Part shown: positions 1-12,000 of the stretch, piece after piece | How the letters are laid out: each line of letters opens with the position of its first letter | Numbering within the stretch: the stretch's first letter is position 1 | From: Escherichia coli | GTDB lineage: Bacteria > Pseudomonadota > Gammaproteobacteria > Enterobacterales > Enterobacteriaceae | Length of the DNA: 64,000 nucleotides | Reading direction: 5' to 3' (one strand) | Assembly: GCF_045037415.1 (NCBI RefSeq) | Contig: NZ_CP173438.1 | Program-made: the position numbers

Positions 1-3000
1 GGCCCGATTATTCAGACCTTTTTCTCCCATGAGATTTTATGCCAGCGTTACCTGCTGGACGGCGTGATTGCGCTGGTGGATGCGGTACATGCCGATGAGC
101 AGATGAACCAGTTCACCATCGCCCAGTCACAAGTGGGCTACGCCGACCGTATTCTGCTGACTAAAACCGACGTCGCAGGCGAAGCAGAAAAACTGCGTGA
201 ACGCCTGGCGCGCATCAACGCCCGTGCACCGGTCTACACCGTCACCCACGGCGACATCGACCTGGGCCTGCTGTTCAACACCAACGGTTTTATGCTGGAA
301 GAGAACGTCATCAGCACCAAACCGCGTTTCCACTTTATCGCGGATAAACAAAACGATATTTCGTCGATTGTGGTGGAACTGGATTACCCGGTAGATATCA
401 GCGAAGTTTCCCGGGTGATGGAAAACCTGCTGCTGGAATCGGCGGATAAACTGCTGCGTTACAAAGGGATGCTGTGGATTGACGGCGAACCTAACCGCCT
501 GCTGTTCCAGGGCGTCCAGCGCCTCTACAGCGCCGACTGGGACCGCCCGTGGGGCGATGAAAAACCGCATAGCACGATGGTGTTTATCGGGATTCAGTTG
601 CCGGAGGAAGAGATTCGGGCGGCGTTTGCGGGGTTGAGGAAGTAATTATGGATGATGGCCGCCATGTGGCGGCCTGAATTATTTTTTGTTCTGATCGCGC
701 AGCATCGCTTCACGTAAAATTGCGTTCAGGCGAGTTTGATAGCCTTTACCAGGTCGCTTCAGCCATTCCATCACATCAGCATCAATACGCACCGAAGCCT
801 GGGTTTTCAATGGCCGATAAAACTTACCGCGTTCTGCGTTAGACCATTGCTCATCGCTGGAAGGCGGGATATCACTGTAATCAATATCTTCGTCGAATTT
901 ATTCGCCAGTGCCTTCAGTTCGGCCTCATGCTGCACATCGAGTGTAGAGGGTGTCCCTCGTTTATGTTTAACCATGCTCATAGCGGCTCCTCTCTTTACG
1001 ATCTGCTTTTCGTGCACTGATGATTCGAATAATTTCATTTCCGCTTTCGAAACGGATGGTATGCGCAACCAGAATAACCACGATACCGTGAACCAGGCCG
1101 ATAGTCTGCCAGCGATACTCACCGTTTTCTATGCGATCTTGCTGTGACAAATGTTGTGGATCATCAAACACTAACACCGCATCTTCAAAGCGGATGCCAT
1201 GTTTCACCCGATTACTTTTGGCCTTGTTTGCATCCCATTCAAACTCCATTGGCATAGTTGCCATCCCTAATTGTATATACAAAAATGTATCTACAATTAT
1301 TCTGCAATTATAGCGTTGATGTTGGAAATAGCATCACGTTTTGGATAATCAACCATGAAATTGACAATGAGTAAGTTGGACTTGATTCATCCAATAGAAT
1401 TTCTCGCCTGACATGGCACACTAAACACCTCGCTGTCGTTAAGGGATTACCGTGAAAAACTATAAAGTTATTACCCCGCTTTTTCCTACCTATGCACAGG
1501 TTAAAGCTATGATGAAAGCCGTCTCAGGCTATTCCCTGAAAGCGGTACGCAATATGATTACCGCCATTCGCGATCAAACCGGTACGCCGCAAAAACCCGT
1601 TGACTGGTCGGAACCTGACCTGTGGATCAGCGAACGCTTAACGGGCGAAGATGCCGACATCGCCCGTCGTATTTGGGATACAGATAATCACATATTGAAC
1701 CCGCGCCACAGCTACGGCTGCTACTTATTCCTCAACTATCCCCAGTTTGAGCTGATGGAAAGCACGCCAGATGATACCTGGCAGCCCACCTCGCGCGGGC
1801 AAAAATTCCTGCAAGATGACGAAAAAACGCTGCGTTCACTGGATGACCAGGAAGGCATTCTGCAACTGCTTGAGCTGCTGGCTGGCCGAGAAATGTCGCG
1901 CCGCGCCGATTTATTGCCGGAATGGCAGGCCTTTTTGCATCAGCATTCGAAATTCGCGTCTGCAAGTTCAGTGAAAAGCACGCTCTACTCCCGTCTCTAT
2001 AACCTTATTGACCGTGGCATGGTTACTCGCGAAGGTATGAGCTATTGCATCACCGATACCGGACGCGCCTGGCTTGGAAAAGCGTTGCCAGCACGAAAAA
2101 GCGATCCGCGTAAAGAGCTGCTGGAAGCGGTGAAACGCTACAACGAGCAGCAAAAAGAGCTGCTGCGCGAACAAATCAGCACAATGAACCCGTACAAATT
2201 TGAACAACTGGTCGGTCAATTACTGGAAGCAATGGGCTACGAGCAGGTCGAAGTGACCAAAGCCTCAGGCGATAAAGGTGTGGACGTGATTGGTCAGGTG
2301 CAGGTCGGCATCACCACTATTACCGAAGTGGTGCAGGTCAAAAGAATGCAGAACACCATCACTCGACCGTATATCGACCAGTTGCGCGGAGCGTTGCCTT
2401 ACCACAAGGCCATTCGCGGTACGCTCATCACCACCGGGAAATTTGCAGCGAAATGTGCAGAAGCGGCGCTCTTTCCGGGGGCCGCGCCCATTACGCTTAT
2501 CGACGGCGATCGCTTACTGGAACTGTTAATCGAAAATAACGTCGGCATTCGCCGCAGCAATGCAGTGGAATTGCTGGATGTGGATTTGCAGTTGTTTGAT
2601 GAGCTGGAGATGGATTAAAGGGCGAAATCCGCCGCCTCAACCATTACAATAGCGACCCAATTTATCTGAACAGAGTTCATCATGGCCAAAGCACCAACTA
2701 AAAAAGCCAAAGCAAAAAAAGGCTTTGAAGAAACATTATGGGATACCGCAAACCAACTTCGCGGTAGCGTTGAGTCCTCCGAATACAAGCACGTGGTGTT
2801 AAGCCTCGTGTTCCTGAAATTCATCAGCGATAAGTTTGAAGCACGCCGCAAAAAAATGATTGCCGATGGGCAAGCTGACTTCCTTGAGATGGAAGTGTTC
2901 TACCAGCAGGACAACATTTTCTACCTGCCGGAAGAGGCGCGCTGGTCGTTTATCAAACAAAATGCCAAACAGGACGATATTGCGGTTCGTATTGACACCG

Positions 3001-9000: not shown

Positions 9001-12000
9001 TTAATTTCCCTTCCAGATCTTTCCAGTAATGCTTTTATTATTTTCTATTTTTAGCTGGACTTTTCCCATATTTACTGATGATATATCCAGGTATTTAGCG
9101 CGATGCGGATGTGTTGGCGCACACCCGCACCGCTCATCACAATCACTATTTATAGGGAATAGCAGTTATGACTGACACGCATTCTATTGCACTACCGTTT
9201 GAAGCAGAAGTCTCCCCGGCAAATAACCGTCAATTAACCGTGAGTTATGCGAGCCGCTACCCGGATTACAGCCGTATTCCCGCCATCACCCTGAAAGGTC
9301 AGTGGCTGGAAACCGCCGGTTTTGCCACCGGCACGGCGGTAGATGTCAAAGTGATGGAAGGCTGTATTGTCCTCACCGCCCAACCACCCGCCATCGAAGA
9401 GAGCGAACTGATGCAGTCACTGCGCCAGGTGTGCAAACTGTCGGTGCGTAAACAAAGGCAGGTGCAGGAGTTTATTGGGGTGATTAGTAGCAAAACGCCA
9501 CGCTAAGTTTCTCTCCCCTTCCCCACACGGGAAGGGGAATTTTCCCCCTCACTCCACATCCTCCCTGCGTAACCCAATATCCCTCAACCGCTCATCACTC
9601 ATCTGCTGTAACACTCGTCGGGTCTGCATTTGCCGCCGCCAACGCCTCACCGCCTGCCAGAGTTGCACAAGTCTGATAAACGGCGTTTTGGCTTTGTTTT
9701 CGTAAAATTCCATCTGCTGCCTCCTCATCTTTCAGAGGCTTCATCATCCGTCTTCTGGCAGTTCACAATACAGATGCAAATATTAGTTTTATTTAACATA
9801 CAGACAGATTAAAACAGCATCTGCATCCGGTTTTTTAGCCTCATCTGTACCGGTTTTTCTCTCTGTATGGTCCAAATAAGGAATACAGCATGACGCGTTA
9901 TCAACATCTGGCGACTCTACTTGCCGAGCGGATTGAGCAGGGGCTGTATCGTCACGGGGAGAAATTGCCGTCGGTGCGCAGCTTAAGTCAGGAGCACGGC
10001 GTCAGCATCAGCACCGTGCAGCAGGCGTACCAGACGCTGGAAACGATGAAGCTCATCACTCCGCAGCCGCGTTCGGGGTATTTTGTCGCACAACGTAAAG
10101 CCCAGCCGCCAGTGCCGCCGATGACGCGTCCGGTGCAGCGCCCGGTGGAAATTACCCAGTGGGATCAGGTACTGGATATGCTGGAGGCGCATAGCGACAG
10201 TTCCATTGTTCCGTTAAGCAAAAGCACGCCGGATGTCGAAACGCCCAGCCTGAAACCGCTGTGGCGGGAGCTAAGCCGGGTGGTGCAGCATAATCTGCAA
10301 ACCGTTCTCGGTTATGACTTGTTAGCCGGTCAGCGAGTGTTGCGAGAGCAGATTGCCCGCCTGATGCTCGACAGCGGCTCGGTAGTCACCGCCGATGACA
10401 TCATCATTACCAGCGGCTGCCATAACTCGATGTCGCTGGCGTTAATGGCGGTGTGTAAACCGGGCGATATTGTCGCGGTCGAATCCCCCTGTTATTACGG
10501 TTCGATGCAGATGCTGCGTGGCATGGGCGTGAAAGTGATTGAAATCCCAACCGATCCAGAAACAGGCATCAGCGTTGAAGCGCTGGAACTGGCGCTGGAG
10601 CAGTGGCCGATTAAAGGCATCATTCTGGTGCCAAACTGTAATAATCCGCTGGGATTTATTATGCCGGACGCGCGCAAACGGGCCGTTCTCTCTCTCGCTC
10701 AGCGTCATGATATTGTGATTTTTGAAGATGATGTCTACGGTGAACTGGCAACGGAGTATCCGCGCCCGCGGACCATTCATTCCTGGGATATCGACGGGCG
10801 AGTGCTGCTGTGCGGCTCGTTCAGTAAAAGTATTGCACCTGGCCTGCGCGTGGGCTGGGTCGCACCGGGGCGCTATCACGATAAACTGCTGCATATGAAA
10901 TATGCCATCAGCAGCTTTAATGTGCCGTCCACGCAAATGGCGGCGGCAACGTTTGTGCTGGAAGGTCACTATCATCGCCATATCCGGCGGATGCGGCAGA
11001 TCTATCAGCGCAATCTGGCACTTTATACCTGCTGGATACGGGAATATTTTCCCTGCGAAATCTGTATTACGCGCCCGAAAGGCGGATTTTTACTGTGGAT
11101 AGAATTGCCTGAACAGGTCGATATGGTCTGCGTCGCGCGGCAGCTGTGCCGCATGAAAATCCAGGTGGCGGCAGGCTCGATTTTCTCGGCTTCCGGCAAA
11201 TACCGTAATTGTCTGCGCACCAACTGCGCTTTGCCGCTCAGCGAAACCTATCGCGAAGCACTGAAGCAAATTGGCGAGGCCGTGTATCGGGCAATGGAAT
11301 AAATTCGACATAGTGGCGAAGCGCCTGATTTACTCTCACGAATAGAGTGTGACTCGTTTTATCTTTGCAGGGTAATCGCCACGTTCCAGCATGGCTTAGG
11401 CAAAGTGCGCTTTGTTCATACCGGATGCGATGTGAACGCCTTACCAGGTCTACAAAATCTTTAAAGTTAAATATATTTAATGGGTTATGTAGACCTGATA
11501 AGCGTAGCGCATCAGGCTGCTTTGCGTTTGTCATCAGTCTCTGATTAGTACTCGATCCATGGATCGCGCTTGCTTTCAGGCAAGGGCTGATCTAATGCCT
11601 GCATTTGCTCTGCCGAAAGTCCGGTATATCGTTGTATCCATTCAGGATCCGCCCCATTCTGCAACAACAATCGGAGGAGGCTCTTTTCCCCTTCTTCTTT
11701 CCCTTCTTTCCTCCCCCTCTCCCTTCCCAACAGCCATCCATCATTATGAATTCGCTCTGCAATCGTCATTATTCGCTCCCTGTGTTGTGGCATTCGACGG
11801 ATAAGTTCGCTGATAAACTCATTAAAACGCGCTTCATCGCCAGTCAGTAAAATGTAATTTAACAGCGCGGTTATCTGGCTGTCATTAGCGCACCCTGTAA
11901 CCAGTAATACTGCCAGTTGATCAATAAGCCCCATTAGATCGCGCTGGCGAATATGCTTTTGGATCAACTCCAGCAGGGCGACTCTGCGATGCTGCACAAT

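Follow-up and report, generated by a model that had tools for sequence, protein, structure and literature searches.

The yjiA-yjiS region of an Escherichia coli genome, very probably the known type ID form of the immigration control region

Organization of the locus

We report on the first part of a 64,000-nucleotide stretch of Escherichia coli DNA (RefSeq assembly GCF_045037415.1, contig NZ_CP173438.1; the whole stretch is called the window, and all positions refer to it), in which a BrnT/BrnA toxin-antitoxin pair, a gene of the Mrr nuclease family, a type I restriction-modification system with the gene order hsdM-hsdS-hsdR and the symE/symR pair lie between yjiA and yjiS. With high confidence we regard this region as the type ID form of the immigration control region of E. 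coli. This form is known and common, fills the interval between yjiA and yjiS as an allelic cassette and consists of four separate modules.

The first-pass annotation of this DNA had listed a BrnT/BrnA-like pair, a 388-residue Mrr-family gene, the three hsd genes with hsdR last, and symE followed directly by yjiS; RefSeq and Pfam place every one of these genes where it had put them. The gene coordinates given in the following are those of the RefSeq annotation of the identical segment in strain Nissle 1917, converted to window coordinates. Positions 1-12000 are base-for-base the same as in E. coli Nissle 1917 and in many other strains. All genome counts were drawn from 5426 complete E. coli genomes, and the arrangement is common to 700 of these if at least 80% of the 12 kb (1-12000) is required to be held in one place.

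The novelty that the first-pass annotation had implied did not stand, since the variant occurs commonly and has been published (PMC4659465, PMC12707154). In a 2025 EcoSal Plus review type IA, IB and ID systems hold the region in 14%, 11% and 12% of 9,040 loci, respectively, and brnAT, symE/symR and rpn are among its standard contents (PMC12707154).

The type I system and its published counterpart

The type I module starts with hsdM (2682-4301, plus strand), which codes for the N6-methyladenine (m6A) methyltransferase subunit of 539 amino acids and is recognized by the PADLOC model MTase_I (642 bits) and by TIGR00497. It overlaps by 11 nucleotides with hsdS (4291-5595, plus strand; specificity subunit, 434 amino acids; NCBIfam and PADLOC matches), which fits a coupled synthesis of the methylase. 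The gene for the translocase/endonuclease subunit, hsdR (5690-8953, plus strand; 1087 amino acids), matches TIGR00348 with 471 bits at a cutoff of 285 and the PADLOC model REase_I with 1717 bits. All three reading frames are full length. HsdM contains the S-adenosylmethionine-binding motif DPCCGSAG and the catalytic motif NPPF, and in HsdR the PD...EFK nuclease motif, the Walker A motif GCGKS and the DEAH motif are intact, so that each of the three subunits of a type I system is present with its NCBIfam and PADLOC matches and the expected motifs.

HsdS and HsdR of the window are 100% identical to those of EcoMII from EC958, a strain of sequence type 131 (ST131), and HsdM is the same RefSeq protein (WP_001029745.1) in EC958. 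In fact the RefSeq accessions of all six cassette proteins (HsdM, HsdS, HsdR, the Mrr-like protein, BrnT and BrnA) do not differ between Nissle 1917 and EC958. Gene order, flanks and chromosomal position of EcoMII in EC958 (EC958_0076-0078, with the Mrr gene as EC958_0079) are those of the window, and no difference was detectable in the region examined.

The system was named EcoMII by Forde et al. in 2015, and their report gives the order hsdM-hsdS-hsdR for EC958_0076-0078, the Mrr gene EC958_0079 as direct neighbour, a transcript level of M.EcoMII above that of dam, and 92% identity of the R subunit to that of StySBLI, the founder of type ID (PMC4659465). According to the same report the target AAC(N4)CTTT was assigned by a knockout combined with single-molecule real-time sequencing, methylation being lost on knockout, and the site is published as A(m6A)C(N4)CTTT (PMC4659465). 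Should methylation of the other strand fall on the adenine that pairs with the first T of CTTT, the two methylated adenines would lie 6 bp apart, which is the spacing expected for type ID. Among literature reports of the AAC(N4)CTTT motif only that of Forde et al. turned up. The type I system of the window is therefore already named and classified, with a known methylation target. The window itself contains 13 AAC(N4)CTTT sites where 8.3 are expected from base composition, and there is thus no sign of site avoidance.

A full-length hsdR is found in 862 of the genomes and is 97-100% conserved, while the exact hsdS allele of the window occurs in 425. The remaining hsdR carriers match hsdS only at its conserved central segment (about 460-706) and 3′ segment (about 1216-1305), a pattern which at the level of sequence is the classical swapping of recognition domains within one family. 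The target recognition domains encoded by the window allele stand out by a low G+C content of 0.32-0.38.

Several side observations concern the wider distribution of these genes. In about 260 complete genomes nothing is left of hsdR but its 3′ 6-20%. The annotation calls these pieces endonuclease-domain fragments, and in some cases they adjoin an HsdM N-terminal fragment; judged by their sequence, they look like remnants of an earlier type ID occupancy. In strains S3 and SCAID WND1-2022 an IS1 element lies inside hsdR or hsdS of otherwise window-identical loci, so that the system is naturally knocked out in some strains. The type ID locus of E. coli MB52 (10020-11860) carries a short S-subunit gene and an N6-methylase gene downstream of hsdR in place of symE.

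Such cases lead to the question whether the type I system might be decaying or domesticated, in the sense that it methylates only and has lost restriction. Methylation alone is what Forde et al. demonstrate for EcoMII (PMC4659465), and the IS1 insertions in hsdR or hsdS of otherwise identical strains as well as the genomes with nothing but hsdR remnants point in the same direction. On the other hand, the hsd frames of the window are full length, the three HsdR motifs are intact and HsdR is highly conserved across the 862 genomes that carry it whole. Moreover, type IA (UTI89) and type IB (CFT073) systems at the same chromosomal locus were shown to restrict (PMC8287963). We therefore consider a loss of restriction improbable and keep to EcoMII as a classical system.

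The spacer between hsdS and hsdR

The 94-nucleotide spacer between hsdS and hsdR contains two neighbouring hairpins on the plus strand (5604-5667). They had been noticed in the first-pass annotation as a hint that hsdR is expressed separately, and they are real: the minimum free energy of the spacer is −37.6 kcal/mol compared to −23.7 kcal/mol for shuffled sequences (z = −4.22), and none of 200 shuffles was as stable. The first hairpin (5604-5623) is followed by TTTCTGG and was matched by the terminator scan, so that it can be called terminator-like, and the second one (5624-5667) directly adjoins it. No sigma-70-like promoter was detected in the spacer at the threshold of the scan. Among four loci with different hsdS alleles just one position of the spacer is variable, and this near-invariance makes the comparison uninformative with respect to covariation in the hairpins. 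From the sequence features a separate transcription of hsdR appears plausible.

Family of the type I system

Type I families are defined in the laboratory by subunit complementation and antibody cross-reaction (PMC2481252, PMC3874165). HsdM and HsdR, for which the first-pass annotation had proposed a family different from that of K-12, were compared with type IA, IB and IC representatives, and the similarity was low or absent in each case. For type IA, HsdM of EcoKI has only 24% identity, and HsdR of EcoKI aligns over approximately 220 residues of the motor region at about 25%. For type IB, the CFT073 system, annotated as EcoAI family, shows 27% identity in HsdM and no real alignment in HsdR. 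Type IC, which the M-S-R gene order would suggest, is represented by EcoR124I, whose structurally solved R and M subunits were matched with just 88 and 136 bits, respectively.

The same comparison bears on the reading that the first-pass annotation had named as its own refutation, namely that the locus is simply the EcoKI (type IA) allele of K-12, rearranged or misassembled. The two regions do occupy the same chromosomal slot and share the framework genes yjiA, symE/symR, yjiS and yjiR, but the likeness to the EcoKI region ends with these framework genes, and nothing was found in favour of the idea. Against it stand the low identities of HsdM and HsdR, the recurrence of the gene order in 700 independent complete genomes, and the lengths of the subunits, which are 1170 residues for HsdR and 464 for HsdS in EcoKI compared to 1087 and 434 in the window. 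The probability of a disguised EcoKI allele is thus close to nil.

Taken together, the published value of 92% for an identical R subunit and the exclusion of types IA, IB and IC place the system very probably in the StySBLI (type ID) family. Like the founders StySBLI, EcoR9I and KpnAI it has an allelic location in the serB-linked hsd region and a bipartite target. The targets themselves are different, CGA(N6)TACC, AGCA(N6)TGA and GGCA(N6)TTC for the founders in contrast to AAC(N4)CTTT for EcoMII (PMC12707154), because the target recognition domains differ.

The Mrr-like nuclease

Upstream of hsdM lies a gene of 388 codons (1452-2618, plus strand), which RefSeq names a restriction endonuclease. 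Its product matches Pfam Mrr_cat (PF04471) with an E-value of 3.8e-29 at residues 243-359, and over its full length the PADLOC single-gene model PDC-S02, a candidate system, with 685 bits. The first-pass annotation had taken it for an enzyme other than the Mrr of K-12, which agrees with our comparison. EcoKMrr, the type IV enzyme of K-12, shares the C-terminal Mrr_cat nuclease domain of the PD-QxK type with conserved catalytic residues over approximately 170 aligned residues; the identity is 31% and restricted to residues 216-383. K-12 Mrr has 304 residues and the protein of the window is 84 residues longer; the K-12 mrr gene lies on the strand opposite to yjiA, whereas the gene of the window has the reverse orientation. 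The catalytic signature GDKGVD...QVKR is present, and no variation was seen at D274, D278, Q295 and K297 among 38 homologues with identities down to 51%.

The part before residue 216 has no similarity to K-12 Mrr and no match to Pfam Mrr_N, and gives weak hits to winged helix-turn-helix families of Pfam. A sequence search of the PDB returned no match. The AlphaFold model has a predicted local distance difference test score of 82, with values mostly above 90 in the N-terminal 210 residues. This part of approximately 210 residues is modelled as helical with two β-hairpins and is followed by a long helix and the nuclease domain. Around residues 84-112 and 136-200 the model has two helix/β-hairpin units, which look like winged helices as far as its secondary structure is concerned. 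In the model, the N-terminal architecture is analogous to the Mrr_N winged helix but belongs to a different domain family. In a Foldseek search with the model the matches to FokI, MspJI and AspBHI, all of them restriction enzymes, were significant; those to PadR, a winged-helix protein, and to the recognition domain of BpuJI were weak, with E-values of about 0.01-0.06.

The best reading of sequence and model is that the Mrr-like protein is most likely an autonomous type IV enzyme of the Mrr family with a different DNA-recognition module. It is the least characterized part of the locus: we found no experimental report of modification-dependent cleavage by this family, and PADLOC lists it only as candidate PDC-S02. 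The gene occurs in 880 of the genomes, in each of them once and on the chromosome.

Partnership or co-residence with the type I system

The position of the Mrr-like gene raises the possibility that the nuclease is a functional partner of the type I system, either co-transcribed with hsdMS or acting as a second-line effector which is set free upon inhibition of the type I complex, as PrrC is with EcoprrI. The gene has the orientation of hsdM, lies 63 bp upstream of it, and there is no terminator-like site in between. The counts of the Mrr-like gene (880) and of full-length hsdR (862) are nearly equal. We also inspected the neighbourhood of homologues in seven other organisms or contigs, and homologues with 52-80% identity adjoin type I systems of other families in five of the eight contexts if E. 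coli is included. The homologue follows hsdM directly in Kushneria, lies between hsdR and hsdM in Thiocystis, is convergent with hsdR in Serratia fonticola, and is one gene away from hsdMSR in one metagenome contig. In Modicisalibacter, however, it follows a BREX cluster, and two further contexts have no restriction-modification genes near it.

Placement and orientation relative to the hsd genes thus vary in every taxon inspected, and the homologues can do with BREX or with no restriction-modification genes in the vicinity. Within E. coli the two components are also found apart, with type ID hsdMSR at another locus and no Mrr-like gene in strain 537-20, and an internal stop in the Mrr-like gene beside intact hsdMSR in E110019. 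PADLOC treats the nuclease as a single-gene candidate, and clustering of type IV with type I systems is a general rule in defence islands (PMC12707154). An obligate partnership agrees less well with this pattern than co-residence in defence islands does, and a partnership with the type I system of the window appears unlikely to us.

The recurrence beside unrelated type I families in distant Gammaproteobacteria might be read more broadly as a sign that the protein is functionally linked to type I methylation or restriction as a partner; it could serve as a back-up nuclease for a blocked type I complex, or could target DNA with foreign type I methylation. We rate this broader form as equally doubtful, and keep to the reading of an autonomous enzyme.

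Three of the loci mentioned have features of their own. In E. coli 537-20 (2915-9255) the type ID hsdM-hsdS-hsdR set, with an hsdR of 97% identity, lies near IS66 and lutABC-like genes at a different chromosomal site, and as it does so without the Mrr-like gene the hsd cassette can move on its own. In E. coli E110019 the copy of the Mrr-like gene (1676-2842) is a pseudogene, and the adjoining type ID hsdMSR has a different hsdS allele. In Kushneria indalinina (2215-10158) the order is hsdR-hsdS-TIR-domain gene-hsdM followed by the Mrr-like homologue, which means that a TIR gene is embedded in the type I operon.

The toxin-antitoxin modules and the borders of the cassette

On the left, the window begins with the 3′ part of yjiA (1-645, plus strand; a GTPase gene in the RefSeq annotation), a conserved gene that bounds the immigration control region on this side. 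Homology to K-12 DNA reaches up to the stop codon of yjiA and is lost directly behind it. The terminator scan found a GC-rich hairpin at 657-674 (GGCCGCC-ATGT-GGCGGCC; seven pairs, all of them G-C). Located between yjiA and brnA, which are convergent, it probably serves as a terminator in both directions.

The extra toxin-antitoxin module of the first-pass annotation is present as brnA (679-981, minus strand; 100 amino acids; Pfam BrnA_antitoxin, PF14384, 3.1e-17) and brnT (968-1255, minus strand; 95 amino acids; Pfam BrnT_toxin, PF04365, 7.1e-25 over the full model), which code for the predicted antitoxin and ribonuclease toxin and also carry these names in RefSeq. They are adjacent small genes that overlap by 14 nucleotides and contain the two domains typical of such pairs. 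BrnT/BrnA of Brucella abortus is a type II toxin-antitoxin system with a ribonuclease as toxin. As there, the toxin gene of the window lies upstream of the antitoxin gene, the frames overlap and the Pfam matches are full length; as a difference, the pair of the window is chromosomal and located next to yjiA. We found no experimental data on this copy. The brnTA DNA is present in 2111 of the genomes, the pair adjoins yjiA in about 39% of all complete E. coli genomes, and it remains there even where the rest of the region is lost, for example in E. coli 042. In that strain (13011-17018) the region is nearly empty, reading yjiA-brnA-brnT-decayed IS1-mdtM, and yjiS, yjiR, symE and all restriction genes are missing.

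At the other end lies symE (9168-9506, plus strand; 112 amino acids; NCBIfam PRK13605, 216 bits), a framework gene shared with K-12, whose SymE is 90% identical. The antisense antitoxin RNA symR (9097-9173, minus strand) overlaps its start and was identified by Rfam RF01809, whose full model it matched with 83.1 bits (E = 3.7e-15) at a gathering score of 61. An antisense symR across the 5′ end of a symE frame is the arrangement of a SymE/SymR type I toxin-antitoxin system. The RNA had been absent from the first-pass list.

Homology to K-12 resumes about 100 bp upstream of symE, in symR and the 5′ region of symE, and continues through the gene. After symE a three-way alignment shows the window joining the yjiS-side DNA of K-12 directly, skipping mcrBC, yjiV and yjiT; this junction just after symE means that the mcrBC-yjiV-yjiT block is absent. 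In agreement with the first-pass annotation, a tblastn search with McrB and McrC of K-12 gave no significant match anywhere in the 64 kb. The block of K-12 is flanked on both sides by a near-identical string of approximately 10 bp, T(T/C)CCCCCTCA, of which the window has a single copy at the junction (9535-9550); on the sequence, this looks like the trace that recombination between short homologies would leave on inserting or deleting the block.

The layout of K-12 is yjiA, mrr, hsdR-hsdM-hsdS, symE/symR, mcrB-mcrC, yjiV, yjiT, yjiS and yjiR, as the first-pass annotation had given it and as the K-12 locus is annotated. Both regions follow the logic of a type I system beside an Mrr-family enzyme. 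They differ in the order of the hsd genes, which is R-M-S in K-12 and M-S-R in the window, and in the accessory genes, since K-12 has mcrBC, yjiV and yjiT and lacks brnTA, whereas the reverse holds for the window.

To the right of the cassette follow yjiS (9549-9713, minus strand; DUF1127), seen both in RefSeq and in the three-way alignment with K-12, and yjiR (9890-11302, plus strand; RefSeq), which is conserved and lies on the right-hand side of the variable region. Beyond it an rpn gene for an Rpn-family recombination-promoting nuclease (11545-12501, minus strand; RefSeq) is intact and codes for 318 amino acids, while its K-12 counterpart rpnD is annotated as a pseudogene.

Proposed function of the cassette

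We propose that the cassette would work as four separate modules. The first would be EcoMII as a classical type I system of the StySBLI (type ID) family, in which HsdM and HsdS from the overlapping genes would form a methylase acting on adenines in AAC(N4)CTTT, as the identical proteins of EC958 do. In classical type I systems the methylase has the composition M2S1. With HsdR joining, and by analogy to the general mechanism in which R2M2S1 binds unmethylated sites, translocates DNA with ATP and cuts where translocation stalls (PMC3874165), the complex would bind unmethylated sites, pull in DNA at the expense of ATP and cut at a distance. As second module the Mrr-family nuclease with its different N-terminal region would act alone as a type IV, modification-dependent enzyme. 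The third would be the BrnT/BrnA type II toxin-antitoxin pair, a frequent neighbour of yjiA in E. coli, and the fourth SymE and the antisense RNA SymR, which K-12 has as well. The McrBC-yjiV-yjiT block found in K-12 does not belong to this cassette.

While we consider this interpretation well founded, one must keep in mind the points that speak against it. The type ID assignment is based on the published 92% and on the exclusion of types IA, IB and IC, with KpnBI (type IE) outside the comparison. For EcoMII the available part of Forde et al. reports methylation and no restriction, that is cutting (PMC4659465). Finally, neither the Mrr-like protein nor this BrnTA pair has any kind of activity on record.

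As the cassette has already been described, counted and partly characterized, and the region is a textbook defence island with allelic cassettes, our observations carry little weight as a discovery. Their use is rather a practical one for the engineering of Nissle 1917 and for the study of ST131. In these strains incoming DNA is expected to meet a type I barrier at AAC(N4)CTTT, and the candidate Mrr-family nuclease may additionally react to foreign methylation patterns.

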